DNA of 64,000 nt, taken from Candidatus Poribacteria bacterium. GTDB lineage: Bacteria > Poribacteria > WGA-4E > WGA-3G. Positions 46,409 to 63,579 of the stretch are shown in pieces. The stretch lies in assembly GCA_964291315.2 (NCBI GenBank), contig OZ219753.1:1568001-1632000 (forward strand), given 5' to 3'. The notes under the pieces are model-generated. The model was not told the origin of the DNA. It saw only the letters and a list, made by a program, of their open reading frames with translations, and did no database searches. Each line of letters begins with the position of its first letter. Position 1 is the first letter of the stretch. Made by a program: the position numbers and the translations under genes.

Positions 46409-47137
46409 TTAAGGTTTTTCTCCTTCTAATGCTTTCATATCTGGGGGCTTGGTTTCTACGATCCCTTGATCTGGATTGACGGCATTGTGGGCAACCATGG
46501 TTTTGAGGATCTGGTGTGCTAAGTCGATGTATTTCATTGCGGTTTTAGGATTCACTTCATTAAAGATGAGCTGTTTCTGGTAGCCGTAGAGGGTTTCTAA
46601 TTCTCGTGAAAGGTTCATGGAGATATCTAGATTCGGGCTTCGATGATTCGCGTAAAATTCACTTCGAGTTTGGGTAAATAGGGTCCGGTATTTATTCGGG
46701 AATTGAGCGTGATCGATATTAAGGCGGCGGAATCGATTGAACAGATTTTGTCGGAACGTCTTGAGGCGTTCTTGGTGATCGGTGATGGCTTCCTGTTGCA
46801 ATTTGATCTGGAGCTTGGTGAGCTTGGATTCGCGAGTCTCTTGATATTCTTCATGGGCTATTTCATTGAGTTTTTGATCGGCTTTGTCCCCGTATTCTTC
46901 TTCGAACTCTTCTGTGTATTCCTCAATGGCACTGTCGATGTATTCACGTTTTTCTTCTGCTTCTTCTTCGGTTAGCGGTTGGGCCAATAGTTCGTCGAGC
47001 TCGGGCATTTTTTCGAGCTGTGGGATTGGAATTTCATTCTCAAATTTTTCGAGGAATGCCTCGACGATGTCGGTTAATTTCATAAACCGAGCGAAACAGT
47101 TAACGACGAATTCTTTATGTTGTTCTGTGAGTTTCAT
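46409..47137 (-). CDS. Hypothetical protein with DUF2280-like termini and an acidic insert
   Basis: KEFVVNCFARF...IVEAFLEKF and KYRTLFTQTRSEF resemble DUF2280 (recalled, not searched); RBS AAGGAG. Confidence 0.45.
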   Translation of the reverse strand: MKLTEQHKEFVVNCFARFMKLTDIVEAFLEKFENEIPIPQLEKMPELDELLAQPLTEEEAEEKREYIDSAIEEYTEEFEEEYGDKADQKLNEIAHEEYQETRESKLTKLQIKLQQEAITDHQERLKTFRQNLFNRFRRLNIDHAQFPNKYRTLFTQTRSEFYANHRSPNLDISMNLSRELETLYGYQKQLIFNEVNPKTAMKYIDLAHQILKTMVAHNAVNPDQGIVETKPPDMKALEGEKP

Positions 47138-47519
47138 TTTAATACTCCTTAAAAATGTTACACTGGTGTAACGTTTGATATCGTCATGTTATGGGCAAAG
47201 AACCCAGTGAATACAAGGGTTAACAAGCGTTATATTACCTTTGTGAAAAAAAAGCAATTTGGCAGAAAGTGTAACATTTTCTACAAACCTTGCACCTTTC
47301 TGGGAGCGGTAATGGGTTGTAGTTTCGTAAAACATTTTCTGCGTAGATAGCTGGATAACATGCTTTTTCCTCGATTATTCTGCTTCTCTAAACATCACAT
47401 AATATATGATAACACATATCACTTAATAAGTCAAATTTATTTTCTCCCCTATTTAAGTGTAGTTTTTAGGCGATGATTTCTGCTGTGTTTTAGATGCGTT
47501 AAAGACTTCTAGGAAGGTA

Positions 47520-47544
47520 TGGGTGCGGTTTGTAACCGCACCCA
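47520..47544. repeat. Palindrome (REP-like or terminator of the aminotransferase gene)
   Basis: tgggtgcggtt-tgt-aaccgcaccca, perfect 11-bp stem. Confidence 0.6.
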
Positions 47545-47669
47545 CAAATTTAGGCGGTTGTCCGATGTGACAGTTTTGGACACGGACGCAAGCGGATTGG
47601 AAAATCTGACTCCTGCGCGGTTGCCTCAGTAAGCCGACTCACAAAGTGTGCGCAGAAGAGGAACTGACA

Positions 47670-48857
47670 TTACTGCAGCGCCTTTTTTATTCGGTCTAAT
47701 CCGCGGTTAATCTCTGTCAACGAGGTCGCGAAGGAGAGTCGGAGGTGTTTGTCAGCGCCGAACCCGTCGCCCGGTACAACGCCCACGCCTGCGGAGTTGA
47801 GAAGGTAATCGGTCATATCCATTGCGTTTTCTATTTTGTTTCCGCCGAGCGTTCTGCCGTAGTGTGCGGAAAAATCGGGGAAGATATAGAAAGCGCCTTG
47901 GGGTTTGGCATAACTGATTCCTTCGATGTCATCAAAACGTTGACAGATCACGTTTCGGCGTTCCTCGAACGCTTTTCGCATCTCTTCAACAGCGTCTTGT
48001 GGTTCATTAAGTGCGGCTAGAGCGGCTTTCTGAGCAATGGAGGTGGGGTTTGAGGTGCTGTGGGATTGGATACGCGACATCGCCGAGACGGCTTCTTCGG
48101 GACCCGCCGTATACCCGATCCGCCATCCTGTCATAGAGTAGGCTTTAGAGACACCGTTGACAACAAAGGTGATGGCTTTGGTCTGCTCATTGAAGGAGGC
48201 GGGACTCTGATGTGTCGCTGCATCGTAGAGCAGGGCTTCGTAAATTTCGTCGGAGATAAGGTAGACCTGATGCTTGACCGCAATATCGGCAACGGCTTTG
48301 AGGGTATCCAAATCGTACGTAGTGCCGGTAGGGTTGCTCGGACTGTTAAGGAGGATTGCCTTTGTCTTTGGCGAGAGAGCAGCCTCGACCTGCTGGGGGT
48401 CCATGCAGAAGTTGTCTGCCGGTGTGGTCTCAATGACGCGTGGTATTGCCCCGGCGAGTTTGATTTGCTCAGGGTAGCTGACCCAATAGGGAGCAGCGAA
48501 GATGACCTCGTCGCCTGGGTCACAGATGGCTTGAAAGATGTTATAGATGGTGTGTTTTGCGCCGCATGAGACGATGACTTCGGACGGTTTGTAGCTCAGT
48601 CCGTTGTCCCTTTTAAATTTGTCGGCAATCGCTTGGCGAAGTTCGGGGGTGCCGGGCACAGGCGTGTATTTCGTAAATCCTGCGTTGAGTGCGTCTATTG
48701 CTGCGTTTTTGATATAATCCGGTGTGTCAAAATCGGGTTCGCCTGCGCCGAATTTGACCACATCTACGCCCTCCGCGATCAAGGCGTTAATTTTGGCGGT
48801 GATCGCTAACGTGGAGGATGGTGTTACGCTTTGGCTTCGTTGTGATAAAGAGATCAT
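47670..48857 (-). CDS. Aspartate aminotransferase (class I/II PLP enzyme)
   Basis: GAGEPDFDTP, NSPSNPTG, SDEIY and NGVSKAYSMTGWRIG. Confidence 0.93.
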   Translation of the reverse strand: MISLSQRSQSVTPSSTLAITAKINALIAEGVDVVKFGAGEPDFDTPDYIKNAAIDALNAGFTKYTPVPGTPELRQAIADKFKRDNGLSYKPSEVIVSCGAKHTIYNIFQAICDPGDEVIFAAPYWVSYPEQIKLAGAIPRVIETTPADNFCMDPQQVEAALSPKTKAILLNSPSNPTGTTYDLDTLKAVADIAVKHQVYLISDEIYEALLYDAATHQSPASFNEQTKAITFVVNGVSKAYSMTGWRIGYTAGPEEAVSAMSRIQSHSTSNPTSIAQKAALAALNEPQDAVEEMRKAFEERRNVICQRFDDIEGISYAKPQGAFYIFPDFSAHYGRTLGGNKIENAMDMTDYLLNSAGVGVVPGDGFGADKHLRLSFATSLTEINRGLDRIKKALQ

Positions 48858-48860
48858 TTA

Positions 48861-48970
48861 TTCTCCTTTGAAAATAAGTTTAGGTTTTGGTTTGTAGTAA
48901 AAGTTTCAGGCCGATGGGCCATTTCTTGAGCTGCGTAAGAGGTGTTTCAACCTGTTAATCCCTTTCTATT
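48861..48970. repeat. Diverged direct repeat of 50101-50210 (offset 1240 bp)
   Basis: 46/60 identical over 48861-48920 vs 50101-50160 by hand alignment; similarity continues into the coiled-coil tail. Confidence 0.8.
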
Positions 48971-48973
48971 CAG

Positions 48974-50083
48974 TCAGTCACTCTCCGTTAAACGGCGGAT
49001 TTGCGATTCTAATCGCTCATACCTAGATTCTAATTCTCTGATTCTATCTTGAAGTTGGCGGTGAGTGCCCGGACGTTGAACAACCCTCGTCTCAAATTCA
49101 GAACGCTCAATCTGTTGAAATCGATTGTGGCGAAGATTTTCATAAAAAATCCAGGTGTCTCGATTTGTGCTATTCGCAAATACCCCGAACCTTGTATCCG
49201 TTGCACAGAGATAGGACTTTAATTGGTCAGGACCATACCCTACAACATTTTCTGGCTTACACTCGGCGATTGCAGCAAAACTCCCTTCTGGGTCAATTAG
49301 CACGATGTCAGCCCTGCGGCGGCTAACTCCCATCTGAATTTCGCATTCCCTTGCTGTGGAAAATTCTTGCCTGAGCTCAGAAAAATAAGACTTAACTTCC
49401 CTTACTACTTGAGCTTCACCGTCCTGAAAACCATCGGGCAGAACACGTATATTTCTAGTCCTAATTTGATACCGGGATGTGGGTGGAAAGATGTTAAAGT
49501 GCCCCTCTATACTAACATTAGCCCCTTCCCTTGAAGGAAAGTCACCTGCAATATCGGGAGAAAGTGTGCATTCAATCATTTCTGTGGCACCACTCTCATT
49601 AGCGTCAACATTTATGAGAGCCATACGGATATATCCTTGGTTAGTGCGGGTCCACTCGAAGATTTCCCCTTGAACCGTGATTGAATGGGGTTTTATACTG
49701 TTTTTTAAGGCGGTGGTTAGAGAACTAACGGAAACGGTTTGATCTGGCTGGCCAGCTCCAGGCGTTTCTATACCGGTAACAGCGAACTTATATGCTCCCC
49801 TGTCTCGAAGGAGGATAACCCTACCTGTGATAAACACTTCATTGCCTACTGACGGCACATTTTGAAAAAGGGAAGGATACGCCCTATGAATAAGACATTC
49901 AATCCTGCTTTTGGGGGACTCCATGTCTTGGAGTGTGAAAGCGTAAGGTAGATATTCTGGGTTCGCTGAGATTTTTCCACGTACCCAGACGTTTTGAAGT
50001 GCAGACTGCTCACTTATGACATCCGAGAACATATCCGTTACTTCACGAACGCTGTAGGTATCTATATTAATGTCGTTTGGCAT
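48974..50083 (-). CDS. Two XseA-N-like OB folds + HsdR-N-like PD-(D/E)xK nuclease + coiled coil
   Basis: YSVREVT...VWVRGKIS and VSVSSLT...ITVQGEI (OB folds); RADIV...IAECK...DQLKSY...FGVFANS (HsdR-N-like); ATG at 50083 behind GGAGG. Confidence 0.7.
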   Translation of the reverse strand: MPNDINIDTYSVREVTDMFSDVISEQSALQNVWVRGKISANPEYLPYAFTLQDMESPKSRIECLIHRAYPSLFQNVPSVGNEVFITGRVILLRDRGAYKFAVTGIETPGAGQPDQTVSVSSLTTALKNSIKPHSITVQGEIFEWTRTNQGYIRMALINVDANESGATEMIECTLSPDIAGDFPSREGANVSIEGHFNIFPPTSRYQIRTRNIRVLPDGFQDGEAQVVREVKSYFSELRQEFSTARECEIQMGVSRRRADIVLIDPEGSFAAIAECKPENVVGYGPDQLKSYLCATDTRFGVFANSTNRDTWIFYENLRHNRFQQIERSEFETRVVQRPGTHRQLQDRIRELESRYERLESQIRRLTESD

Positions 50084-50145
50084 GTGCACCTCCTCCTATA
50101 TTCGCCTTTGAAAATAAATTTTGTCTTCGGTTTGTAGTAAGGTTT

Positions 50146-50302
50146 TCAATCCGACGGATCGTTTTTTAGGCTGTTAAGCAGCCTCTCAAACTGTTGAATC
50201 CCTTCGTTCCATGCCGTCTCTTTCCGTTTAAGACGGCAAATTTCAGACTTTAAGTGCTCACATTCGGCCTCTAACGATTTGATTTTATCTTGAAATACAT
50301 GT
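50146..50302 (-). pseudogene. Out-of-frame coiled-coil tail of the giant ORF
   Basis: FQDKIKSLEAECEHLKSEICRL aligns with LQDRIRELESRYERLESQIRRL of the paralog; detached by a frameshifting deletion at about 50302. Confidence 0.7.
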
Positions 50303-53300
50303 GCATTCGGCGATCGCGGCAAAATTCCCTTCGGAATCAATTAGTACGACATCGGCCCTGCGGTGAGCAACTCCCATCTGAATTTGGTATTCCTTTACTG
50401 TGGAAAATCCTTCTTGTTTGAGCTCAGAAAAGTAAGACTCAACGACCTCTACTACTTGAGGTTCGCCTGCAGCACCCACTGCCGTCTCCACACCCGCTAC
50501 CTGCTCAGCGAAACGCGTCGCGATCCTACCTCTTATATCGTCGAACATCACATCCTGTAAAGCAGGCTCTATCGCCCGATAAAAAGCAGGAGCATTTTCA
50601 CGATTCGCTAATTTCTGAAGAATAACCTTCTGGAGAGCATCATATGCGGAAGACGCGAGGACAAAGTTTGTATTGTAATCAATCCCTTGAGGCACTGTAC
50701 CGGGTTCCGCACGGAAGAGGTCTATATTCTCAATCATATCATAATCTGCGGGGTCTAATTCTTCCGTCATCGCCTCTATCTGCTCAGCGGCATCCGTATC
50801 TCGCTGTTCTAATAACGGCATTTCAACCTGCCATTGTCCGTTGCCGACCTGTCGGACAGACACTCGCAGGTCATCCGTAATCTGATATATTGTTTCCCCA
50901 CTACTGAGTTCTTTAACACGGATATGTCCCCGGTGGACAGGGTTCAACCATGCGGAAAGCGTTGCGTAGTTCGCCTGTGCGAAGCTTTCAACGATACGCG
51001 GGAGCCGCTCTATCCGTGTCCCCTCTCCGTCCGTGCTATTTTCTACCTCTAAACTAAAGATAACCCTGTTTTGTCTACTTATACGCATCCGTGGCTCTAC
51101 GACCAACAAAATCTCTTCCCGAGGCCCCACAGCCTCCTGCGTCTCTGTCGCGGGAGAGCCCTCTATCGCCTGAGAGACCGCATTAATACGAATAAAGGGA
51201 TTGTTTGTAACCCGATAGGACGCACGGACTGCCCGGTGTTCTGTACCATCTACATCTACTGTGACCCCTTCTGCTTGGGTCTGTTCAGCAATAGGAGACG
51301 CGCCAGCAATCTCTTCCCTACGCGCACGAAGTTCCTGAGCGAGAGCTGTATCTGAAATTGTAACAGAATGTGTAAGCGAAGCGGTATCAAATGTCTCAGG
51401 ATCGAGCGTAAGACTATCTGCTACATGCTCCCTGCCCCCTTCACGCGTCTTGAGCACTGTGTTCAAAACATTCTGCGATTTTCGTCTCTGTCCACGAATT
51501 ACAGCAGGACGATAAGGAGCGTCCTTGAAATACTCCCCTTGCAACCGCCAGATAGCGTCCTTGACATCCCGTATCGCGATAGGATAGCTGCGCGTAATCC
51601 GTCGCATCTGTGATTCTAGAGAATCCACGACCTCTCGCAACGACTTTCGTAACACATCATTAGAGACATGCGTATCAATCGCATTTAAGAGAGCCTCCCG
51701 ACCTACAGGGCTCCCCTCCCCTACTTTAGGGAAGACCAAACGACGGATGCCCCAGCGATTGTAGACCTTCTGTACTTCCTCCGAACCCGATCTTGCGATT
51801 TCTACCTCTAAAGATTTTAGTAACCGTCTATAATTAGAAACCGAAGTTTCTAGCCCATTCTGCAGTGCCCGTTGCTGATCCACAAGTTCTTGAAGATTCT
51901 CAAGCACAGTCGCCCGTGTCTCTGCATCCAACTCATCTTTCAATTCATTGCGGTACCCCTCCATCCTGCGATCCGAGAGCGGAGGCTCTACATCAAACGC
52001 ATTTTCTACAAAATATTCAACCGTTACATTCTTTTCGAAGAAGCGGTCTTTATTAGAGTGATCAGCGAAGCGGTGGAATGTCTCTATAGCAGAAAGTGCA
52101 GCTGAATCAAAAGCGTTCGCAAGTATCTCTGCCTCGCCACTCTCACCCATATATCCTTCATCTTCATAAAAGGCTAATACGAGAGGGTCCATGTAAGAGC
52201 GAGCCGTACTCCGCTTCTTAAATCCTGAAGCGTTAATATCTCGGATCGTTAAACTCGCACCTGAGGCAGCGTGTGTCACCGAAGCGATAAAGGTATCAGG
52301 AGCAGATTGAGCAATCGCAATACGGAGCCCCGTCCCTGATTCATAAACACGCACACCATTAACAAAGCCTGTGGATTGCATAGCATCATTGCGATTCGGG
52401 ACACGCAATGCGACACCATCGGGCGTAAGCCCTGTAGATGACTGAGCGAGGGTGGATTGCCCCGATTGCACCATCTGCTCGTTGAAAGCCTTCACACCTT
52501 GAAGGAAACGCGTGTGACGCGCCTCTAGTTCCTGTGCGATAGCACTCTCAGACTCAGCGGTCTCTATGAAATTCGAACGAGAGATCTCTATATCGACACG
52601 GAAATGATGCTGGATACCCTCGGGGACAGGGGAGTAGTAAGCCCCCGCGAGGAACCTTATTGGTTCCATATCCCGATAAAGTTGTTCTAGCGTAGAGAGG
52701 ATATAAGACTCAGAAACCCCGTCAACTAAAATCCAAGGCGTTGTTCTACGGAGATATGCCCGTTGTGCTTGTATCGCAGCCTTGCGTTCATTATCTATCT
52801 CTGTCGCTTCCCGCGAAGATTCCCCTGGTGTCTCTGACTGTATGTCTACAGGGAGTTCACTTGTCTGCCGTCTGTGCTCAAAGCCACGTAGTGGTTCCGC
52901 TTCAAAAGTTGTCGGGTCCGGTACCCAAGCATCCGCCTCTCTTCTGACATAAATTCCGCGTTCGGTATCGAAAAAGGCGACACGCCTAAACTTCTCAGCG
53001 TTCACTGGGCTCCGTGCGGGAGATGGGAAATTCGCCTGAGACGGGTCATCCGCACGGTCTGTTAGCAACAGATGCATCTCTATGGGTTCGCCTTCTATCG
53101 CATATCTCTGAATATGGTCTACAGGAGGCGTATCCTTACCCGCATAATACTGCGTATCTTCAATATCTCTAGGTAGCCGGCGGACGGGGCCTGTATAGCG
53201 AGCATATGTTCGTGTCGGTCTCCGATCCAAAGCAGCGCGGACTTCTAGAGGTTCTAAATCATCATCAGTATCCGTCTCCGCGGCATCACGCTCCTCAAAT

Positions 53301-56300
53301 TCCTTCACAAAGGCAAGTTGTCGCTCTAACGCAATATCCGTTATCACCACCCGCGTCTCTCTGCGTCGCTCCGGCTCCCAGTTGCCATTTCTATAAACTT
53401 CTAAAACCGCAGCACGTTCTATTGCGGGGAAGCGAACACGCCTTTCATCACTAATTTCCCATACAACATCATCATTGACTTCCCTGCGTATATTGTAATT
53501 CCCAAAACTACCCGCTTCAATCATACGTCGCATGTGCCCGCGTACCGTATTTACGAACTTCCTGCCCACATATTCCCATAAAGACCGAGCATCTGCGTAA
53601 TCTATCTCTTCAAGCACGACACCATTATAGAAAACCTTTGCGACACCACTCCCCTCAAGGAACTCAACCACATACCCCTGGTATTCCTGATGCACATACC
53701 TACGGACAACAGGATTGTCATAATGCTGTTCCACCCAGTTTTTATCTGTTGGTGTCCATGTATTTTGAGCCTCTAATCGTCTCCTGAGTAGGCTCGGGAC
53801 TGCCCATCTGAGTTGAGCTACCGTGCGTTGAGCATCAAGAGAGTCCATCACTTCCCTATTGACCACATCAACTAAAGCCTCATATACATCGAGCCGAGTG
53901 TAGAGCGGAGTTTCTGAAGCGAACACAGCCGTCTCTATCGCTTGCGTCAACTCTGCACCAAACACGAACGCAATATCCCTTGACCAATCCTTCCAATCTT
54001 CTATAAGAATGTTATTAGGGTCAGTATCTGCTTCCCGCCAGCCAGTAATAGTAGGCGGTTTCCCTTCTTGAACCTCAACACGTTGTCCGAAGGGACGTAC
54101 TTTCGGGAGATTCCATCCCTTTTCAGCCGCAACTTCACGTTGAGACCAAAGGATGTATGAGATCGCTTCATGCGGAGAACGTGGTTGTCCGTCTGGTGTC
54201 TCTATAGCGACAGCCACTGCGGGGACAGGTGTCCCATTTGCGTCGCGGAAGACAGGAACCGATTCATCCCCACGGAAGGCATCTATCCTATATCTGAAGC
54301 CCGATTCTGTGGGTACCACCTGAACAGTAAAAGTATAGTCAGGCGACTCAACAACACCATCTGCCCCTAAATCAAAAGCGACAGTATCCCCTAGTTCAAA
54401 TCGCCAGGCACCCTGACCCCCCATATCTATCGCGGCAAGCTGGAGCGGGATATTCCCTGATAAAGAGAAACCATCTCGCATCACCATTGCGATAGGAGCA
54501 ATCGCCCTTCGCAACGCATCTGTTGTATTCAGCGGGCCTGTTTGCCAGTTCGTGACAAACACTTTATCACTTATCGTCCCATCTTTCCGGTTCTCAATTG
54601 TCACCTCACCCTTCTCACCCTTCTTGAATCGGATAGTTAAGTCAGAGCCGAGCATCGCGACCTGTACTTCTGTATCAGAGTCCTGGATCACCTCAAACTG
54701 TGTCCCCTTTGTCCTATCTATGTAAAAACGTGTAGACTCCCGTTTTGTGCCATCCGCATCCGTCTCCTCCATAGAAGCAACCGCCATCCGCAACTGCGTT
54801 GAGGGACGACGAAATACCTGCTTTTTATCAGGAATAACGACATATTCGTGCATCGCAGACGCAGGTACCAGTTTCCCCGTATTCGTCAACACTATATCTG
54901 AACGGGGACGCTCACCCGCTAACGTCTCTAGATTCTTTTGAAACGCAGAGAGCGGTAAATTGGTAAGAACGACACCTTTCAACTTAAATGCGTCTAGACC
55001 TCGGAGTTCTACAAAAGCCGATTGTAATGTATTGAGGAGCTGCTTTAAGGCGACACCCTCAGGCTCCCAAAGCGACATCATAGAGAAATTTTCATTTTTA
55101 GACGTAAACGTTTCAAGGTCTGCTGCGAGCTGCATCAACCGGTTCTGCTTAACCGTGTCTTCCGTATTCCCCGCGAGACGCTTGAGCATATGAGCCGTAT
55201 CCCCCGCCATATCTGAAAGCCCCGCACCCCGTCGCTCACCCGTTGCTCGCCATTTCCCATCAGGCCCCTTCTTCTTCACCTCTGCTGTAGCGGGTATAGA
55301 CCCATCATTCCAGAGGGCATCAAACCCATTTTCAGGAGCATTTATGACCATTTCATATGTATCAAACCATTGCGGAGCATAAATCTCATCTATCTGCGAC
55401 TCCCGTGGCACACCTGTTGCAGCGACCCGTCCTGCGAGAGACCGTATCTGAGCCTTAGGCGAACGCGGGTCTTCTACTACACCCTCACCGTCATCCTCCG
55501 TATCCTCATCTGCGTCAGGCGGGCGTTCCCCCGCTTCTATGATCTCTTCATCCGTCGCTGTATCCGGTTCCTCTGCTTCCGCTTGATCTTGTGCGAAGTC
55601 AGGATTATCTAAATCTATATCATCCATAGAGCCGACACCCTGGTTCGTAATCTCAGACAACAGCACAGTCTGTATCGTTTCTGGCGAATACTCCACCGTC
55701 TGCGGTACCGGGACAGATGTAATATGAGGCGTGAGACGCTGCATCTCTCTACGGATTGACTTGAGATAATTTTCCACCTGCGTCAAGATGTTTGGAGGGT
55801 CAGGGAGCCGCAACACGAACTGACGCACCGCTGCGATCTCCGCTTCTGTCGGACGAGCATCCGTACGGGACGTTTGATACCGAGTAATAAAAGACTTAAC
55901 TAAATCCCATTGCTGTTGCTTTTCTTTTATAGTGTAGCCTTTAAAGACAAGATCCGCGACAGAGAGGTCTTCAAGCTCTACAGGCGTTCCGAACGAGACA
56001 CGTTCTGTATCTCCTCTAACATCTGTTCTCCACAGATGCGGAGTTACCCACAGATATTCATAAAGTGCTTCATTCTCAGAGTCCCAGCCTTGCGAGAAAT
56101 CTGACCATGGCATTTGGAGCCGAATATTCAACGGGAAAGACAACGGCAAACGCAGGCCTTTATTCTGTGGCGTGACGACAGAGAGATATTTACCACTTAC
56201 AGAGAGACGTACCTCTATATCCCTGAAATTCCCTAAATAATAATGATATACCTGCTTTTCTGTCAGAACAGGGATTGAGGCGTAAGGAACATTCTCTTCC

Positions 56301-59300
56301 TGCCAGCTGAACGTCTGGTCTTCATCACGCGTATGGTGTTGCTCCCCTACCTTCGCGTACTCACCCCGTGTTACAATATCCTGTGGCGGTGCGAGACCAC
56401 CTTGTTCTGTATCTCGGGATGCGAGATTTACGACACGATACTTTAGATTACCACGACGCTTCACCGGTATCAGAGGATCGTTCGGGTGTGATTCTACGGA
56501 ATCAACAGAGCTATCCCCATAGATACCTGGATTTACAACACCGGGAGCGAGCGAACGGAAGAGATGCTCTACAGCGACAGGGAAGTCCTCACTACCAAAA
56601 ACGAGCCCCGCATATGCTTCCCGAGTTCCTAATTCGGAAGGGAACGCTGTCCGCATCCCAAGTTCTGCGGCACCTTCTGTCATTTCTGTCTCTAGTTGCA
56701 ACAGGTCTGCTTCTTGCGTCCGAGGCGTAGTGAGTTTCCACTCCACACTATCCTCAGGCCCCCTTCGCAAAATAAGTTCAAAGCCGGGATAATGCGCGTG
56801 TCTATAGATAACCTGTTGTACCGTCCCTTCCGTATCTGCTTTTAAATCTACAAGTGCGAGAGCACCCGCTGCCTTAGGAGCATACATAGACATCGCTTTT
56901 GTCACACGAACCTCACTCCGTCCGGCAATAGGGTCAGGCGGTGGAGCGGGAACTTCTCTCGCAATCCCTACAGGGTCAAACACCTCTGTGAGACCACCGG
57001 GCTGGATGTCTACCACACGCATCCCTAGCACATCGTGCATAATCTCGCCAAGAATAGAGCGGTGCGAGGCACGAGATTCACGTTCTAACGCCCCGAACGC
57101 AATCGCACTCTCTCCCAAAGCCTCCCCGGCGATATGAAGACGGATCGTGTCTTTAAGAAACATCCCGAGGTCTTTCTGTGTTTTCCGTAGATAGTTATGA
57201 TACGCAGCAGTAAAAGCAGGGTCAAGCCCACCCCTTCGGAGACGGTCATTTGTGCGCGTAATCCCTGAAAGTCTATCTATAATCAACTGATAGGCGTGGT
57301 CATTTTGAGAAGGCGTGAATTCGTGAGCTGCGACATACTTTATATCTGTATCCCTAAAAGATTCCCGCAGACGTTCTGCGTGAGACCAAGAATCTTCAAG
57401 AGCGTTTGTCTGTGGATTGCGTTGCCTGTCCCACATCGTCATCCGCACATCCACGAACACTTTAACACCAGAGGCTTTCAAATCCCTGTAGAATGTTTCA
57501 AAGTTTTCATAGTTACGGAGACCTATCAATCCCCCTGTAACAGTCCGTTCCGCTTCATCTAACGGAGTGACATATTCAAACTCAGAAGATGTTGTAGGTG
57601 CGGGGTGTCGTGCTGCGAGCAGGCGGTTGAGTATACGAAGTTCCGCAGAAGCACGGAGGGCCGCACTTTGTGTCGGTATCGCTCCCTCTTTTGTCAACTG
57701 GCTCTGAATCTCTCCGATACGATCCTGTAGTTGTCCTTCTGTCCAGTCCGCTGTTTTTGTTTCAAATTCCTGGTACGCTTTTTCTGCGAAAGCAGAAGTG
57801 GGATGTGTAAGTGTCGCGACCTCTTTGAGTGCTTTTAGGAGATTCTTTCCATCCCAAAGATATGTTGTTTCAATCTTCCCCGTCCGTTTATTTTGATACT
57901 CCCCTTTTTTGACCAGCGGGCTAGACTTTGTATTCTTGAGAACAATCACGCCAGGGAGTGTCGCGAGGTACTCGCTCCCTTCAAGTGGAGAACCGAAAAG
58001 AGCAGGGTCAAGGATAACAACAGGGCGGCCCGCTTGCAAGGATTTTAGAGCCGTATCTACTGCCTGGTCATTCTCTTTATGGCTCGCGTGTGTAATGAAA
58101 GTCACGTGGCTAAGAGACGCGATAAGAGCATTCTTCTGAAAGTTGTTCCTCTGATATGGCGATCTCCCTGTTGCCGTTGTCACCTCGTTGGCATCATAGC
58201 CTGTCGGATGCATAGAGATAGCACCCGCATTTACTCCATCAATTTCAGGCACATTCGGCTGATACTGAGCCGTTCGGCTAAAAGGCGTAGCACGCCTCTC
58301 TATCCCGCCGGGCATTGCGACCAGCACATTCGCCCGCTTCTGTTTTGTAACAGCTTTCACCACTTCACGCCCTGTGCCAAAGGTGCCATCTGTGACAGCA
58401 ATCTCCTCATTCAGTGCGGTAGCAAGTGCAGCCGCTGCATTAGCACCTTCTCCCTGTGCTTTATTATAGGCATCTATTCGCTCTTCAACCGCTTGATCCC
58501 ATTCTGAAGCATCCGTGATCCATCCGAGGCGAGTCGCAACATCTATCTTCTTCTGCCGCGTCTGCTCTTCTGTCTCTCCCATAGAAGAAAACGAGCTGTT
58601 ATTACGCTGAGAGCCTGCTATTCCGAAGGTCAGATTACCTTGAGCCGCTTTATTAAGAATCATCTCCGCAGTATTGTGGAGATAGAGCGACCTTATATCT
58701 ATCCCGAGAGCGTCAGCCGCGGACTGCATCCGTGGCGGTAAATCCGCAAAAGGCATTTGTCCCGCAGGTTCAGCGTCTGCGGGTGTCGGCACAGGTATTT
58801 TTCCATCTTTGAGCTGCTGCCGTATTTGCATCAAATGTCGGCCAAGTAGGTTCTCTCCCTTGACACCTTGCGGAGTTATATTCACACCCCAAACGGGTTT
58901 CGCGTTACTGATCGTCTCCCGGTCGGTGCTAATCGGTTCTACAAAAAGCAAACGACGGTCACCTGTTGCGAGGAGCCAGTCTGCGAGTGTCCTCGCCTCA
59001 CGAGCATCAAACTTGTAAAGCTGGGGAGACGCATATTTCGCAAGCAACGCTTCACGCATCAACGAACTCCTGCGTTGCACCCAGGCTGCGGTCTGTTCAG
59101 GCGTAAGTTCAGACTCATATTTATTCGCAATCTTCCACGCCTCTTCTGCGGTGTTTGCTCTACGGATACCTTCTGAGACAGGTATCTGTTGCCGTTTACC
59201 ATCACGAGCCCGTACCCACCACATCTTTAAGCCGCTGTTCGCAAACTTCATAGAGAGCATATAATGCTCAACAGAGGTATAACGTTGTCCGCCTATCTTT

Positions 59301-60367
59301 GGATAATCCGCAAAAAAAGTAGATAACGCGCGGAACGGGCCACGGAGCGATTCATAATTAAAATAGAGCGTATTGTTAACACTCCCCGCAGCTTCTTCCT
59401 CCGCGTCCACATCTAATCCCGCTTCATATTCCTGAAACTGCTCTAACCCCTCTTGGAACAGAGCCACTGTTTGCTGTAATTCTCGGAGCGTTTCTGCCTC
59501 TGTCTCTGTCCGCACATCCTTCGCTTCAAGTTCCGCAATATCCTCTTTTAAGTCTGCGATAGCTTTTTCAACATTCGAAACACTTAACTCCCCATCCTGC
59601 AATGCTTCAAACACTTCATTCTCTTGTCCGAAGGGAGAACCGAGGGTTTCCCAGCCATCGTCATCCGTATCCGCTTGTGCCTGTGCTTCACGTCGTTGCC
59701 GTATCCTGTCAAGGATTTTATTCGCTGCAGCATCACTTGTCCTTATCTTCGCAGTCTCTGGTATCTCTCGTTCTTCTTCTTCTGCTTCAGGCTCTCCGGG
59801 TTCTTTTATCGGCAGTTCTTCTTCCTGTTGCTGGGTTTCCTGCTCCTGTTCTTCTTCCTGCTCAGGCTCAGGCTCCGGTTCTGGTTCAGTTCTACGAGCA
59901 TATCGGGTCTGTCCCCCCTCTCTGCTACTATCTATTTCGTCAAAGAGGTTATCAACCGCCGTGATCAACGCTCGGAGTTCCAGCCATTGCGACAATCCCT
60001 CTGAGAAATAAGCCAGCTTTTCATGAGCCTTTCGAAGGTCTTTCACCTCTGCTTCGGTTAGCCCCGATTTCGCTTCGAGTTCCACAATCGTAGCTTCAAT
60101 CTGCGCTTTTCCTTCTTCAACCACAGCAACCGGCAGACCATCGCGGAGCGCACCAAACACTATATTTCCATCAGCAGCCTCTTCTCCAAACGATGACGTG
60201 AGTACGGTTGCTTCCTCTTCCACCTGATAGAGCGGGTGCGGTGGGCTTTCTTCTATTGCTGTATCGCCAACGAGTTCTGTTGTCTCATTGGTTTCTGATA
60301 CTCTTGAATAGCAGACATCTCGTCCGTCTCTCTCGCTGCTAATAAATCCTTTTTTCCGAGTTGACAC
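50285..60367 (-). CDS. Giant 3360-aa polyvalent-type protein (NADAR + DprA/SMF + DUF488 + unknown regions + truncated HsdR-N-like nuclease)
   Basis: 10-kb uninterrupted ORF with RBS GAGGAGG; NADAR at about 58805-59370, DprA-like at about 57940-58635, DUF488-like at about 57005-57545, nuclease half at 50303-50464. Confidence 0.8.
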   Translation of the reverse strand: MSTRKKGFISSERDGRDVCYSRVSETNETTELVGDTAIEESPPHPLYQVEEEATVLTSSFGEEAADGNIVFGALRDGLPVAVVEEGKAQIEATIVELEAKSGLTEAEVKDLRKAHEKLAYFSEGLSQWLELRALITAVDNLFDEIDSSREGGQTRYARRTEPEPEPEPEQEEEQEQETQQQEEELPIKEPGEPEAEEEEREIPETAKIRTSDAAANKILDRIRQRREAQAQADTDDDGWETLGSPFGQENEVFEALQDGELSVSNVEKAIADLKEDIAELEAKDVRTETEAETLRELQQTVALFQEGLEQFQEYEAGLDVDAEEEAAGSVNNTLYFNYESLRGPFRALSTFFADYPKIGGQRYTSVEHYMLSMKFANSGLKMWWVRARDGKRQQIPVSEGIRRANTAEEAWKIANKYESELTPEQTAAWVQRRSSLMREALLAKYASPQLYKFDAREARTLADWLLATGDRRLLFVEPISTDRETISNAKPVWGVNITPQGVKGENLLGRHLMQIRQQLKDGKIPVPTPADAEPAGQMPFADLPPRMQSAADALGIDIRSLYLHNTAEMILNKAAQGNLTFGIAGSQRNNSSFSSMGETEEQTRQKKIDVATRLGWITDASEWDQAVEERIDAYNKAQGEGANAAAALATALNEEIAVTDGTFGTGREVVKAVTKQKRANVLVAMPGGIERRATPFSRTAQYQPNVPEIDGVNAGAISMHPTGYDANEVTTATGRSPYQRNNFQKNALIASLSHVTFITHASHKENDQAVDTALKSLQAGRPVVILDPALFGSPLEGSEYLATLPGVIVLKNTKSSPLVKKGEYQNKRTGKIETTYLWDGKNLLKALKEVATLTHPTSAFAEKAYQEFETKTADWTEGQLQDRIGEIQSQLTKEGAIPTQSAALRASAELRILNRLLAARHPAPTTSSEFEYVTPLDEAERTVTGGLIGLRNYENFETFYRDLKASGVKVFVDVRMTMWDRQRNPQTNALEDSWSHAERLRESFRDTDIKYVAAHEFTPSQNDHAYQLIIDRLSGITRTNDRLRRGGLDPAFTAAYHNYLRKTQKDLGMFLKDTIRLHIAGEALGESAIAFGALERESRASHRSILGEIMHDVLGMRVVDIQPGGLTEVFDPVGIAREVPAPPPDPIAGRSEVRVTKAMSMYAPKAAGALALVDLKADTEGTVQQVIYRHAHYPGFELILRRGPEDSVEWKLTTPRTQEADLLQLETEMTEGAAELGMRTAFPSELGTREAYAGLVFGSEDFPVAVEHLFRSLAPGVVNPGIYGDSSVDSVESHPNDPLIPVKRRGNLKYRVVNLASRDTEQGGLAPPQDIVTRGEYAKVGEQHHTRDEDQTFSWQEENVPYASIPVLTEKQVYHYYLGNFRDIEVRLSVSGKYLSVVTPQNKGLRLPLSFPLNIRLQMPWSDFSQGWDSENEALYEYLWVTPHLWRTDVRGDTERVSFGTPVELEDLSVADLVFKGYTIKEKQQQWDLVKSFITRYQTSRTDARPTEAEIAAVRQFVLRLPDPPNILTQVENYLKSIRREMQRLTPHITSVPVPQTVEYSPETIQTVLLSEITNQGVGSMDDIDLDNPDFAQDQAEAEEPDTATDEEIIEAGERPPDADEDTEDDGEGVVEDPRSPKAQIRSLAGRVAATGVPRESQIDEIYAPQWFDTYEMVINAPENGFDALWNDGSIPATAEVKKKGPDGKWRATGERRGAGLSDMAGDTAHMLKRLAGNTEDTVKQNRLMQLAADLETFTSKNENFSMMSLWEPEGVALKQLLNTLQSAFVELRGLDAFKLKGVVLTNLPLSAFQKNLETLAGERPRSDIVLTNTGKLVPASAMHEYVVIPDKKQVFRRPSTQLRMAVASMEETDADGTKRESTRFYIDRTKGTQFEVIQDSDTEVQVAMLGSDLTIRFKKGEKGEVTIENRKDGTISDKVFVTNWQTGPLNTTDALRRAIAPIAMVMRDGFSLSGNIPLQLAAIDMGGQGAWRFELGDTVAFDLGADGVVESPDYTFTVQVVPTESGFRYRIDAFRGDESVPVFRDANGTPVPAVAVAIETPDGQPRSPHEAISYILWSQREVAAEKGWNLPKVRPFGQRVEVQEGKPPTITGWREADTDPNNILIEDWKDWSRDIAFVFGAELTQAIETAVFASETPLYTRLDVYEALVDVVNREVMDSLDAQRTVAQLRWAVPSLLRRRLEAQNTWTPTDKNWVEQHYDNPVVRRYVHQEYQGYVVEFLEGSGVAKVFYNGVVLEEIDYADARSLWEYVGRKFVNTVRGHMRRMIEAGSFGNYNIRREVNDDVVWEISDERRVRFPAIERAAVLEVYRNGNWEPERRRETRVVITDIALERQLAFVKEFEERDAAETDTDDDLEPLEVRAALDRRPTRTYARYTGPVRRLPRDIEDTQYYAGKDTPPVDHIQRYAIEGEPIEMHLLLTDRADDPSQANFPSPARSPVNAEKFRRVAFFDTERGIYVRREADAWVPDPTTFEAEPLRGFEHRRQTSELPVDIQSETPGESSREATEIDNERKAAIQAQRAYLRRTTPWILVDGVSESYILSTLEQLYRDMEPIRFLAGAYYSPVPEGIQHHFRVDIEISRSNFIETAESESAIAQELEARHTRFLQGVKAFNEQMVQSGQSTLAQSSTGLTPDGVALRVPNRNDAMQSTGFVNGVRVYESGTGLRIAIAQSAPDTFIASVTHAASGASLTIRDINASGFKKRSTARSYMDPLVLAFYEDEGYMGESGEAEILANAFDSAALSAIETFHRFADHSNKDRFFEKNVTVEYFVENAFDVEPPLSDRRMEGYRNELKDELDAETRATVLENLQELVDQQRALQNGLETSVSNYRRLLKSLEVEIARSGSEEVQKVYNRWGIRRLVFPKVGEGSPVGREALLNAIDTHVSNDVLRKSLREVVDSLESQMRRITRSYPIAIRDVKDAIWRLQGEYFKDAPYRPAVIRGQRRKSQNVLNTVLKTREGGREHVADSLTLDPETFDTASLTHSVTISDTALAQELRARREEIAGASPIAEQTQAEGVTVDVDGTEHRAVRASYRVTNNPFIRINAVSQAIEGSPATETQEAVGPREEILLVVEPRMRISRQNRVIFSLEVENSTDGEGTRIERLPRIVESFAQANYATLSAWLNPVHRGHIRVKELSSGETIYQITDDLRVSVRQVGNGQWQVEMPLLEQRDTDAAEQIEAMTEELDPADYDMIENIDLFRAEPGTVPQGIDYNTNFVLASSAYDALQKVILQKLANRENAPAFYRAIEPALQDVMFDDIRGRIATRFAEQVAGVETAVGAAGEPQVVEVVESYFSELKQEGFSTVKEYQIQMGVAHRRADVVLIDSEGNFAAIAECTCISR

Positions 60368-60516
60368 GTGTACCTCCTCACTCTATATTATTTTATACAA
60401 AAAACGTTCAAAAGAGAGAAAATAACCTCAGAAGAGATATTACTCCTCTTGGTGAAAATAGGAGCCCATTGAAGACATTTTCAGTGGCGACTTTCAAGTA
60501 GCTACGGTTCTCCGAA

Positions 60517-61383
60517 TCACAACGTTTTTTCGAATTCCTTCAGCAGGTTTCGCTGCTTGCGAGACAGCGATTTCGGTATTTCTACGACCAGCCTGACCTT
60601 TAAATCTCCTTTTCGTCCGGAGGCATCCACGGCGCCGCGCCCGCGTAAGCGGAGCTGCTGTCCGGGTTGCGCACCCGCGGGGATCTTTAGCTCGACATTG
60701 TCGGTGAGCGTTTTGATCCGAACAGAACCCCCTAACGCTGCGTCTGTCATAGAGATTTTGGCATCTGTTAGCAGGTCCAAACCGTCGCGTGTCAGGGTGG
60801 GATGAGGCTGCACAGAGACTGTTACCAATAGGTCCCCTGAGGTGCCTATTCCGCGAGATTCGCCTTGTCCTCGGATGCGGAGGGTTTTTCCATCTTCGAT
60901 AGTGGGCGGAATTGTAAGCGTGATCCGTTTTCCTCGGACGTTTACGTCTTTCTTACTGCCTAATACTGCGTCTGAGAAAGGGATAGTGATATTCATACGA
61001 ATATCTCGTCCACGGGCTGGCGTAGTAGTTCGGCGCTGTCCGAATGCGTCGCCGAATGCGTCGCTAAATCCGCCGAGCCCGCCGAACCCGCGTCCAAAAA
61101 TGTCATCTAAATTGAGGTGGGCGAAAATATCATCCGTGGTCCTATAGCCTTCGAAACCCATGTTGTTGACTCCGGCGTGCCCCTGTGTATCATAGACGCG
61201 TCGCTTTTCTGGATCAGAGAGCACAGAATAGGCATTAGAGGCCTCTTTGAACTTCTCTTCTGCTGCTTTATCGCCAGGGTTTTTGTCTGGATGATACCGG
61301 ACTGCAAGTTTGCGATACGCTTTCTTGATTTCGTCTGGCGTGGCTCCTCGGGCTATACCGAGGATTTCATAGTAATCTCTCAT
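60517..61383 (-). CDS. DnaJ-family chaperone without zinc finger (CbpA-like)
   Basis: DYYEILG, YHPDKN J-domain, G/F region and DnaJ C-terminal domains; no CxxCxGxG. Confidence 0.92.
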
Positions 61384-61427
61384 AGTATTTTCTGTGATAA
61401 AGGTTGTGCGGTGTATATCCGATCGAT

Positions 61428-62564
61428 TTAGAGCATCGCAAGAACTGCTGCAATATCATTTAAAGATCGATGCTGTTTTACAAGTGTGGTTCCGAATTGA
61501 AGTGCTGCTCTCTCTACCCGCAGTTTATGGGATATATCAACAATACTTTCTATATCTTTGACGTGGGCCGCCCCGATGAGACGGCGTAGGATCTCCAACC
61601 CTGCAAACCCGATTGCATCGTGAAAGATGCCCTGCAATACTTGTGCTTTCAATTTAGTATCAACTGTTTTAAATTCATCCGTGTAGATATGCCACGTTTG
61701 CATGAGGGCGGTTTTAAGCATCGATTGTACGCTTGCGGTGCCTCGGTGTGAAAAGTAGGATAAGAGGTAATTTGCCCAATAGCATCCGAGGTCAAATCCG
61801 ACGGGGCCGTAGAAGGCAAATTCGGCATCGATAACTTTGGCTGTGTCGTTTTGGACCAAAACGCTCCCTGTATGCAGGTCTCCGTGGGTAACGCCCTGTT
61901 GCGTTGTTAGGAAAATCTGTTTGAGGGACGCTGCCTGCCCCAAAAATTCCGGATCCGTTTTTAATTGTTGAACATCCTGTTCTAAGCCGGGTGTCCAGAA
62001 GTTCGTCTCATGGTCGGTATACGGGAAGGTGAATACATAGTCGGCAGTTATTGCCTGCATAGTTGTATTCGCGAATTGTTGGGCGTAGTGCTGTGCAGTT
62101 GCGGGGTCAAGATTCGCTACATAGGTCTGGCTATGTACAACCCCCATGAATCGTCCGATCTGCTCGGCGATTGCAAGGTCCACCCTGCCTGTGATCAGGT
62201 CGTCCCGTAGGACACGGGCATCTCGGAGGTCTTCCATAGCTATGACGGCTGTTTCCGCATCAAAGCTGTATTGCACAGGCACGGCGCTGCTTGCTAAGCG
62301 GTTGTAGACCTCTAGTGCGCGAGATTCGTAAGTCAACCGTTGGGTGGACAGCGGATACTCGGGCCCCAATATTTTAATATAGGGCGGTGCATATTTAAGG
62401 ACGAGCGAATGCTGTGGGCGCGCCGTGTCCGAGACGCGATAGATTGTGTTGAGGTTTCCATCGCCAATCTCTTCTACGCGCAATTCGGTATCAGCCCGAA
62501 ACATGTGGATATCTGCATGTCGCTGACGCAGGTAACTTGGTAGCGTGGCAAGGTTGATTTCCAT
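61428..62564 (-). CDS. mtnK: S-methyl-5-thioribose kinase
   Basis: [32 protein letters not shown] and RRLIGAAHV. Confidence 0.88.
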
Positions 62565-62577
62565 ATCTTCCGTAAGT

Positions 62578-63579
62578 TTACAACAGCAGCCCCTCAGCTA
62601 TCTGAATAGCATTTAAGGCGGCACCTTTGCGAAGATTATCTGCGACTACCCATAGGTTCAATCCGTTTTCTATAGAGGTGTCCTCCCGGATGCGCCCGAC
62701 GTAAACGTCATCTTTACCTGCGACATCTACTGCGAGTGGGTACTGCTGGTTGCTCGGATCGTCTATAAGTTTCACACCGGGGGCGGCGGCGAGGCGTTCT
62801 CTGGTTTCAGCGGCTGTGAGTTTTTCGTGCGTTTCAACATTTATCGATTCGGAGTGTGCAAAGAAAACGGGGACTCGGACGGTTGTCGCAGAAACGCCGA
62901 TCGTATCATCTTCAAGTATCTTCCGAGTTTCGTTAACCATTTTAACTTCTTCCTCGTTATCGCCGCTGTCTAAGAAGGGCCAATCAAATGCGACATTGAA
63001 TGCCATTTGGTGCGGGAATTTGTCCAAAGTAACGGGGATACCTGCCAGAGCGTCCTTCGTCTGTTGCACCAATTCTGTGACAGCCTTTCCACTTTTCCCG
63101 GAAACGCTCTGATACGTTGAAATGACAATCCGTTTGATACCGACTGCATCATGAATCGGTTTAAGCGCTAGCATCATTTGGATAGTGGAGCAGTTCGGGT
63201 TGGCGATAAGCCCGTTGTGAGTGTGAGCAGTATCCATGTTGACTTCTGGCACTACCAAAGGGGTCGCCGGATCCATGCGGAAGGCACTTGTGTTGTCAAT
63301 GACAAGCGCACCTTTTTGCACGGCTGTTGGAATAAACTCTCGACTAATCGATGCACCCGCTGACGAAAAGACCACGTCTACATCTTCAAACGACTCGTGC
63401 GTTAATTCTTCAACAACAATCGGATCATTTTTAAACGAGAGAATCTCACCGGCGGAGCGATACGATGCCAAAAGTTTCAGGGAGGCGATAGGAAACCCGC
63501 GTTCTTCTAAAATCTGCAACATAGTGTTGCCAACAGCCCCGGTCGCACCTACGATTGCTACACGATAACTTTCATGCAT
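62578..63579 (-). CDS. asd: Aspartate-semialdehyde dehydrogenase
   Basis: VGATGAVG, DNTSAFRM, ANPNCST, RVPVFFAHS and DNLRKGAALNA. Confidence 0.96.
   Translation of the reverse strand: MHESYRVAIVGATGAVGNTMLQILEERGFPIASLKLLASYRSAGEILSFKNDPIVVEELTHESFEDVDVVFSSAGASISREFIPTAVQKGALVIDNTSAFRMDPATPLVVPEVNMDTAHTHNGLIANPNCSTIQMMLALKPIHDAVGIKRIVISTYQSVSGKSGKAVTELVQQTKDALAGIPVTLDKFPHQMAFNVAFDWPFLDSGDNEEEVKMVNETRKILEDDTIGVSATTVRVPVFFAHSESINVETHEKLTAAETRERLAAAPGVKLIDDPSNQQYPLAVDVAGKDDVYVGRIREDTSIENGLNLWVVADNLRKGAALNAIQIAEGLLL

Follow-up and report, generated by a model that had tools for sequence, protein, structure and literature searches.

Introduction

Polymorphic toxin and Rhs loci hold tandem, partly decayed copies in which constant segments stand beside variable ones, and a locus of this general appearance lies in the genome of a Candidatus Poribacteria bacterium, within a stretch of 64,000 nucleotides (nt) referred to here as the window (GenBank assembly GCA_964291315.2, contig OZ219753.1, positions 1,568,001 to 1,632,000). 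Two adjacent minus-strand genes, a giant open reading frame (ORF) of 3360 codons and a small ORF directly downstream, share their leader, parts of a nuclease module and 3' flanking DNA around dissimilar contents. An earlier note on this DNA had read them as a cassette-like locus in which variable sensor or cargo sequence is captured in frame onto a constant nuclease effector, the reverse of the polymorphic-toxin layout. Comparison with related loci and proteins leads us to another reading, which we consider probable: the pair would be a recent chimeric scar in a recombination-prone locus, produced by tandem duplication, one replacement and later decay, and not a cargo-capturing cassette system.

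Several described systems come close to this locus without coinciding with it. In relation to polymorphic toxin and Rhs loci, the layout is reversed, the constant part is broken in one copy, and no secretion or trafficking domain, immunity gene or orphan cassette was detected here. Chimeric genes in defence-island-like hotspots share with it variable genes between housekeeping borders, toxin–antitoxin pairs and insertion sequences (IS) in relatives, and a new ORF formed on a resident start site; what sets this case apart is a captured fragment as large as 3,290 codons, with both junctions located to within a few codons. The polyvalent proteins of phages and conjugative elements share the very large multidomain build, the NADAR and DUF488 domains and, in the homologues of the giant, a DprA-type SLOG domain; the giant differs from them in having no plasmid or phage match and no mobile genes nearby, and the window's copy is an internal fragment. 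The domain combination of the giant's family also resembles ADP-ribose-processing modules that passages of PMC9503650 (Iyer, Aravind and co-workers' polyvalent proteins) discuss for phage proteins and polyvalent effectors.

The nuclease module itself is of the HsdR N-terminal/RecB type (PF13588), a family that a passage of PMC3424549 places in the PD-(D/E)XK superfamily. The small protein matches the same profile, and its family keeps the Asp, Glu-x-Lys and Gln-x-x-x-Tyr motifs invariant. The SF2 motor and the HsdM and HsdS partners of type I restriction HsdR are not seen here, where the neighbours are an aspartate aminotransferase gene (aspAT) and a dnaJ-like gene; the domain is instead fused to OB folds and a coiled coil, and only its first half survives in the giant ORF. 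XseA, the large subunit of exonuclease VII, has the same N-terminal OB fold and a similar order of OB fold, nuclease and long coiled coil, whereas the small protein has two OB folds and a PD-(D/E)xK module in place of the XseA catalytic domain. Among the titles and abstracts listed in literature searches, none described the OB-OB-nuclease family, the dnaJ–aspAT locus or the giant family. In what follows, L-numbers denote related loci (mostly from Poribacteria) and P-numbers database proteins; the upstream copy of the shared parts is copy A and the downstream one, the small gene, is copy B.

Similarity between the two copies

The nuclease blocks of the two genes (50304-50467 against 49260-49420) are 80.5% identical over 164 nt by BLASTN (expectation value, E, 3.9e-38), and 50303-50467 in translation matches the small protein at 72.7% over 55 amino acids (aa) by tblastn, close to the 39 of 54 identical residues that the earlier note had counted. 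A tail and flank block (50099-50294 against 48859-49053) is 70.2% identical over 198 nt (E 2e-16, BLASTN). The proposed homology of coiled-coil tails and downstream DNA is therefore real and longer than had been stated, but the giant's tail is out of frame and the downstream DNA is decayed coding sequence, not neutral flank. The leaders were found at both starts as quoted: with up to two mismatches allowed, the pattern GAGGAGGTRCACRTG matches twice in the 64 kb, both times at these starts, against a shuffle mean of 0.22 with 2 of 100 shuffles reaching two matches, a weak test given a short pattern that contains a Shine-Dalgarno sequence and was built from the same two sites. The alignments indicate a single ancestry for the leader, start, nuclease module and tail of both genes, with unrelated sequence between.

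Between the two homology blocks, the giant's copy lacks 197 nt that are present in the small gene (columns 208-404 of the copy alignment). Because 197 is not divisible by 3, the coiled-coil tail of copy A at 50146-50294 falls out of the giant's frame, and for this reason the giant and the small protein have no coiled-coil tail in common. The giant reads AIAEC-T-CISR-stop where the family reads AIAEC-K, its stop codon lying at 50285-50287; the module keeps its Asp and Glu but has lost the Lys of E-x-K together with the Q-x-x-x-Y helix and the final strands. A Pfam scan of the giant reported no nuclease domain, and a complete PD-(D/E)xK core is absent. The idea of a constant nuclease effector on the giant founders here, since the module ends before the catalytic Lys and the ORF stops 5 codons later. 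With the Lys and later core missing, the giant cannot act as a nuclease as assembled, and we infer that it ends in a catalytically dead stub of about 55 residues.

The small gene and its family

Copy B encodes 369 aa from an ATG at 50083, within an ORF of 371 codons counted from 50089 (48974-50089). Its product matches tRNA_anti_2 (E 2.2e-18), with two XseA-type OB folds, and HSDR_N_2 (PF13588) at residues 246-314 (E 1.5e-6, 28.7 bits against a cut-off of 25) in Pfam, and D261, E276, K278, Q289 and Y293 occur in all 12 of the family members aligned, so that the catalytic motif is complete in copy B. The N-terminal OB fold aligns with positions 1-100 of the 389 of TIGR00237 (XseA; E 4.6e-18) at 65.6 bits, below the equivalog cut-off of 180, and a sequence search of solved structures with the small-gene family returned only the XseA OB fold (PDB 8txr chain A, E 3.8e-7) and coiled-coil artefacts. 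Full-length relatives of 392-550 aa (the best at 58% and 48% identity) have the order OB-OB, nuclease, coiled coil, mostly with a far longer tail.

The DNA behind each copy holds the remains of such a tail. Downstream of copy B it reads ...NLNLFSKENK-stop right before the aspAT ATG, the family C-terminus in P0008 and P0011 being KLKNLFSKENK; copy B has been shortened by a 2-nt indel and stop codons, among them a TGA where copy A, P0004 and P0012 have Trp (TGG in copy A). After the tail of copy A, where P0004 341-398 matches 50301-50122, the sequence reads ...NLFSKAN and runs straight into the Shine-Dalgarno sequence and ATG of copy B. This tight tandem junction, a gene end joined to about 20 nt of leader, accounts for the brief similarity of copy B's leader to that of A; the homology between A's own leader and those of relatives extends along 83 nt.

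Junctions of the chimera

On the 5' side, the 149 nt ahead of the giant's GTG can be traced to known pieces, namely an OB-nuclease leader and a fragment of a Macro-domain gene. Positions 60369-60450 match the OB-nuclease leaders in L029, L011, L032, L046 and L047, the L029 match ending 1 nt before the ATG, and the alignment runs through the start and two further codons, GTG TCA ACT against ATG/GTG TCA ACC (Met-Ser-Thr in L029, L032 and L001), before it ends. Past codon 3 the DNA is at background in 8 of 9 relatives by local alignment with 300 shuffles each, L046 scoring 22 with 4 of 300 shuffles as high; a resemblance of the giant's N-terminus to the OB-nuclease family beyond that codon was considered and rejected, blastp-short giving nothing significant.

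On the 3' side, homology to the giant family stops at 50483-50489, 16-22 nt before nuclease homology starts (50467). The half-module is 83.8% identical over 111 nt to L002 10710-10820, tail and flank are 79.6% identical over 201 nt to L002 11026-11226, and the tail of copy A matches that of P0004 at 62.5% over 48 aa (E 1.5e-15); no OB-fold remnants were found in copy A. Taken at face value, these junctions indicate that the giant ORF occupies the place of codons 4 to about 222 of copy A and would be translated from A's own start.

The features of the interval and its borders, in minus-strand order, are as follows.

62578-63579, minus: aspartate-semialdehyde dehydrogenase (asd)
61428-62564, minus: methylthioribose kinase (mtrK)
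60517-61383, minus: DnaJ/CbpA-like gene, upstream border of the variable slot (NCBIfam DnaJ models; 74-88% identical protein in 15 syntenic loci)
60463-60513, minus: 51-nt remnant of a Macro-domain gene (BLASTN 76-80% over 45-51 nt to L029 9614-9664, L031, L011, L015 and others, inside Macro ORFs there)
60368-60450, minus: leader of copy A, the putative ancestral promoter and ribosome-binding-site region, now ahead of the giant ORF (77% over 83 nt to L029 9906-9987, E 8e-10)
60359-60367, minus: start and Ser-Thr codons GTG TCA ACT from copy A, with the 5' junction immediately after
50285-60367, minus: chimeric giant ORF, 3360 codons
58808-59299, minus: NADAR domain, giant residues 357-520 (Pfam PF08719, E 4.2e-12, 47 bits against a cut-off of 35.1)
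50483-59716, minus: giant-family homologous stretch, residues 218 to about 3295 (tblastn with P0124 and P0125; blastp)
50303-50467, minus: N-terminal half of the copy A PD-(D/E)xK module, in the giant's frame (80.5% nt identity to 49260-49420)
50295-50302, minus: breakpoint of the 197-nt deletion (alignment of both copies, columns 208-404)
50146-50294, minus: coiled-coil tail of copy A, intact, in a frame other than that of the giant ORF
50099-50145, minus: decayed distal coding tail of copy A (..NLFSKAN), ending at the tandem-duplication junction (three-frame translation against family C-termini)
50084-50105, minus: short duplicated leader and Shine-Dalgarno sequence of copy B
48974-50083, minus: copy B, the small gene, 369 aa from ATG (the database copy P0003 begins at the same ATG)
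49445-50056, minus: OB-OB part of copy B
49070-49417, minus: nuclease module of copy B
48977-49069, minus: short coiled coil of copy B
48858-48973, minus: decayed distal coding tail of copy B (..NLNLFSKENK-stop), its TGA overlapping the aspAT ATG
47670-48857, minus: aspartate aminotransferase (aspAT), downstream border (NCBIfam; 86-92% identical full-length matches in 16 loci)

The gene order on this strand is asd, mtrK, the DnaJ/CbpA-like gene, the giant ORF, the small ORF, aspAT, an uncharacterised gene, a methyltransferase–HNH fusion and a sulfatase gene. The position of the pair between the dnaJ-like gene and the aminotransferase, with no integrase, was confirmed: among the 43 window ORFs of at least 100 aa there is no integrase or transposase, and conjugation genes were likewise not found in the window. 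Rfam families were not found in 47000-61500, and neither terminators nor promoters scored above shuffles when the junction regions were scanned for them.

Content and homologues of the giant ORF

The N-terminal contents of the two genes are partly as the earlier note had them: the small protein carries two tRNA_anti_2 OB stretches and HSDR_N_2, and Pfam finds NADAR (residues 357-520), a weak DUF488 and nothing else in the giant, which has only the N-terminal half of the module. An exhaustive HMMER search with residues 2100-3299 against 1.84 billion representatives found 14 proteins including the window's own, hence 13 others, in none of which the nuclease module was found (best E 0.29). NADAR, DNA_processg_A (DprA-type) and DUF488 stand in series in the homologues P0127, P0130 and P0131 (Pfam).

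The fragmentary character of the window's giant emerges from its longest relatives. Residues 880-4040 of P0124 (7439 aa) are collinear with giant residues 218-3293 at 34% identity (tblastn 59716-50489), and residues 790-3327 of P0125 (6772 aa) align to giant residues 827-3295 (tblastn 57889-50483). P0124, P0125, P0128 and P0135 extend beyond the junction into a conserved C-terminal half, about 3,300 aa of which the window's giant has nothing, P0124 and P0125 being 48% identical over 3,350 aa past that point. At the other end, about 740-890 residues precede the alignment start in P0124, P0127 and P0130, and in P0125 and P0135 the alignment starts earlier. The C-terminal 660 aa of the giant have no homologue of near full length besides the window's own protein, and BLAST found neither an internal repeat in the first 400 residues nor a match of residues 1-250 to giant homologues.

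The giant had no tblastn match at E 1e-5 or below in 72,556 plasmids and 50,697 phage records, its single PHROG match is to the NADAR region, and a sequence search of solved structures with it gave no match. Its third-position GC skew of +0.27 is the highest of the 43 ORFs surveyed in the window, the other 42 having a mean of -0.06 (standard deviation 0.15) and the same-strand neighbours ranging from -0.10 to -0.41, a deviation that suggests recent arrival or inversion of the giant sequence.

The dnaJ–aspAT slot in relatives

A family-alignment scan of one genome per species yielded 56 loci, 52 of them Poribacteria by title, three titled uncultured bacterium (L008, L028, L031) and one labelled Latescibacterota; the source genome itself was not included, and the best match was at 48% (L001). 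The genes asd, mtrK, dnaJ and aspAT flank the slot in 15 of 15 syntenic loci (65-95% protein identity), with the sulfatase gene in 13 of the 15 within the stretches fetched. Compared across these relatives as the earlier note had proposed, the dnaJ–aspAT interval turned out to be a variable hotspot of 1.6-7.2 kb that holds tandem module genes. Besides an uncharacterised 310-aa gene, a Macro gene and the OB-OB-nuclease gene, it contains DUF433 and PIN toxin–antitoxin-like pairs, stand-alone module genes of 180-190 aa, a module–coiled coil–helix-hairpin-helix gene, a permuted gene (L002 12042-13643) and an IS with a DDE_3 transposase (L007). The Macro gene lies directly upstream of the OB-OB-nuclease gene in 12 of the 15 loci (for example 9332-9907 and 9989-11488 in L001).

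The OB-OB-nuclease gene is full length in 11 of the 15 loci. The sequence that precedes the module in the slot is OB-OB in 11 of them and other uncharacterised sequence in L012 (a 727-aa ORF) and L026 (a 337-aa ORF), L017 and L047 having a short module gene only; the giant cargo was found in none of the 15. In the window's slot, conversely, the Macro, 310-aa, DUF433 and PIN genes of the relatives are all absent. The window does have a Macro gene on the plus strand at 39530-40093, which was considered as the slot Macro and rejected, since its orthologue in relatives (about 70%) is another Macro gene that is conserved separately, and its identity to the slot one is only 51-57%. From this comparison, the window's interval appears to be a rearranged copy of a hypervariable Poribacteria slot between the dnaJ-like gene and aspAT.

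Among relatives, the median pairwise identity of dnaJ (85%), Macro (83%) and aspAT (93%) is far above the 49% of the OB-nuclease gene (41% in its OB part and 61% in its nuclease part), so that the latter appears as a fast-evolving gene in a conserved frame, as conflict-related genes are. In PADLOC, the giant, the locus Macro protein and the 310-aa protein matched nothing, and the nuclease module gave only a marginal match, to a model for a type I methyltransferase (E 6.7e-4); the pair of Macro and OB-OB-nuclease genes, lacking a PADLOC match, is a candidate for an uncharacterised conflict or DNA-repair system.

The border with aspAT has features of its own. The nuclease-gene stop overlaps the aspAT start (ATGA; window 48854-48857) in 5 of 12 relatives, suggesting that translation of a housekeeping aminotransferase is coupled to that of a variable gene. 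Duplicated aspAT 5' fragments lie upstream of the intact gene at L001 11484-11585, L007 11494-11682, L025 11434-11568 and 11939-12028, and L026 7947-8078 and 11621-11755; together with the L007 DDE_3 transposase, they point to tandem duplications or insertions that have recurred at this border.

On the far side of aspAT, at 46409-47137 (minus), lies a 242-aa ORF that matches neither Pfam nor NCBIfam and gave no tblastn hit to any of the 56 related loci. Next, at 44855-46234 (minus), comes a DNA adenine methyltransferase with an HNH region fused at its C-terminus; this region resembles the HNH of IscB and Cas9d models (E about 1e-10), and the gene keeps its position in several relatives. A type ISP restriction-modification enzyme (coupler, N6 methylase, Type_ISP_C) occurs at 26985-30083 (minus), its first 160 residues lying outside the listed domains.

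Partners of the nuclease module across Poribacteria

A search of a 5.8-billion-protein set with the small protein gave 127 matches, of which the best 120 are listed; all 120 contain the module, and one of them is named Candidatus Poribacteria. Many of the matches listed have other layouts, such as TPR repeats followed by a C-terminal module, or a module that starts at residue 4 and has about 280 further residues behind it. The 56 loci contain 65 module-bearing ORFs of 39-788 aa, with the module within the first 51 residues in 42 and further in for the remaining 23. Partners identified with Pfam are OB-OB, TPR (on either side), Macro (L013 10007-10963), DprA (L042 8987-10390 and L044 9053-10369), staphylococcal nuclease (L048, L049, L053), helix-hairpin-helix (L026), VWA and long unannotated C-terminal regions. 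Several proteins of 740-790 aa have an N-terminal module followed by unannotated sequence. The permuted gene L002 12042-13643 encodes a zinc-ribbon-like N-terminus, the module, OB-OB and a coiled coil, and its usual internal nuclease has been deleted almost at copy A's deletion site.

The catalogue of partners that the earlier note had called for, compiled here from the related loci, bears out the variety of partners, but not their expected arrangement, the module being N-terminal in 42 of the 65 ORFs and no carrier being giant (all are at most 788 aa). Judged from these architectures, the module is promiscuous across the phylum but is not a constant C-terminal effector. Cassette-like capture of variable cargo onto such an effector is not supported, given the uniqueness of the fusion, which recurs in none of the 13 giant homologues and in none of the 65 module ORFs; the reversed polymorphic-toxin layout fails on this uniqueness, on the integrity of the module and on its position alike.

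Proposed history and alternative explanations

The history that we consider probable starts from an ancestral slot holding a Macro gene and then an OB-OB, HsdR-RecB-type nuclease and coiled-coil gene whose stop often overlaps the aspAT start. The OB-OB-nuclease gene would have been duplicated in tandem into copies A and B, leaving a junction of A's last tail codons and about 20 nt of leader, and the locus Macro and 310-aa genes would have been lost. Copy B would have kept its OB folds and nuclease and lost its distal tail through a frameshift and stop codons. In copy A, the part from codon 3 to the first module residues would have given way to about 9.9 kb taken from within a gene of the rare giant family, a fragment of 3,290 codons encoding NADAR, a DprA-like SLOG domain, DUF488 and then about 2,000 uncharacterised residues. 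Since both junctions are in frame, this fragment would be translated from A's leader and start codon. A deletion of 197 nt, perhaps part of the same event, would then have removed the second half of A's nuclease and shifted the tail out of frame. The homologies, the junction positions, the truncation and the uniqueness of the fusion are direct observations, from which we infer the order and recency of these events; the giant protein may still act through its NADAR/DprA-like/DUF488 region. The shared leader, module and flank are, in this account, relics of common descent and not a constant effector for loading cargo.

Several observations weigh against this history. Both junctions are in frame, for which the chance is about 1 in 9 if unselected; the 3' junction lies within about 5 residues of the module boundary common to every other architecture; the 5' junction keeps exactly the start codon; and a frame of 3360 codons is still open. 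In-frame junctions, boundary placement and an open frame fit a fusion selected at least for a time. Copy B, moreover, is a mosaic, with an OB region that resembles gene 2 of L002 and a nuclease, tail and flank that resemble gene 1, and this means that recombination among paralogues, beyond simple duplication, also shapes the locus. The timing of the decay draws on Nei-Gojobori dN/dS estimates that cover 45-54 codons and are hence rough: 0.28-0.36 for the half-module of copy A (against B, L001 and L002) and 0.23 for its out-of-frame tail (against L002), intact genes giving 0.16-0.31. Being in the range of intact genes, these values imply that copy A was a normal coding gene for most of its history and that the frameshifting deletion, and probably the replacement with it, is recent.

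The main rival explanation, possible though in our judgement unlikely, is a functional cargo–nuclease fusion, in which the fragment was captured onto an intact nuclease and coiled coil and selected, the 197-nt loss being very recent or an assembly error. It draws on the two in-frame junctions, one falling on the start codon and the other on the canonical module boundary, on the dN/dS of 0.23-0.36 in A's half-module and tail, which indicates that they were coding until recently, and on the natural fusions of the module to DprA (L042, L044) and Macro (L013), domains akin to those of the giant. The same low dN/dS is, however, explained equally well if A remained an ordinary OB-nuclease gene up to the event; the module as assembled lacks the catalytic Lys, the Q-x-x-x-Y helix and the last strands, and its tail is out of frame; and no second example exists among the 13 giant homologues or the 65 module ORFs.

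A broader proposal, which we would call doubtful, is that the slot may encode a rapidly diversifying and as yet undescribed nuclease system associated with Macro, with the OB-OB sensor exchanged by recombination between leader and module, and that the giant was a briefly functional capture of a 3,300-residue NADAR/SLOG cargo that replaced the Macro partner before the nuclease decayed.

Systematic cassette exchange, with leader and module as homology arms between which the N-terminal nucleic-acid-binding part was swapped repeatedly and the giant as one such cargo, strikes us as improbable. The faster divergence of the OB part than of the nuclease part (median identities of 41% and 61%), the mosaic of copy B and, in relatives, the tandem module genes, the permuted L002 12042-13643 and the duplicated aspAT 5' fragments all speak for it. 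Neither arm occurs on any giant homologue, however, which means that homology of the arms did not bring this cargo in; the window showed no signals of a recombinase, an integrase or repeats; the module is most often N-terminal; and the syntenic loci have an OB-OB partner in 11 of 15 cases and the giant cargo in none.

An assembly chimera, in which giant ORF and nuclease remnant are not contiguous in the real genome, seems to us highly improbable: the assembly is of an uncultured organism and repeated module sequences could mislead an assembler, but both fragment ends abut one ancestral gene in the right order and orientation within conserved synteny, which would take two independent misjoins, the contig is listed as 3.26 Mb in the protein database, and the repeat copies, at 70-80% identity, are too divergent to collapse.

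Implications

If the chimeric-scar history is right, the locus would present a legible case of gene birth by capture, in which 10 kb from the interior of a giant gene turned into an ORF that looks expressed, through a resident leader, start and first three codons. It also carries a warning for the reading of similar loci, as a tandem duplication that was later disrupted can leave shared constant segments on both sides of unrelated cargo without any modular system. The by-products of the comparison are perhaps worth more than the chimera itself, namely a highly promiscuous HSDR_N_2-type module found throughout the phylum, and the pairing of Macro and OB-OB-nuclease genes, a candidate new conflict or DNA-repair system in sponge symbionts.

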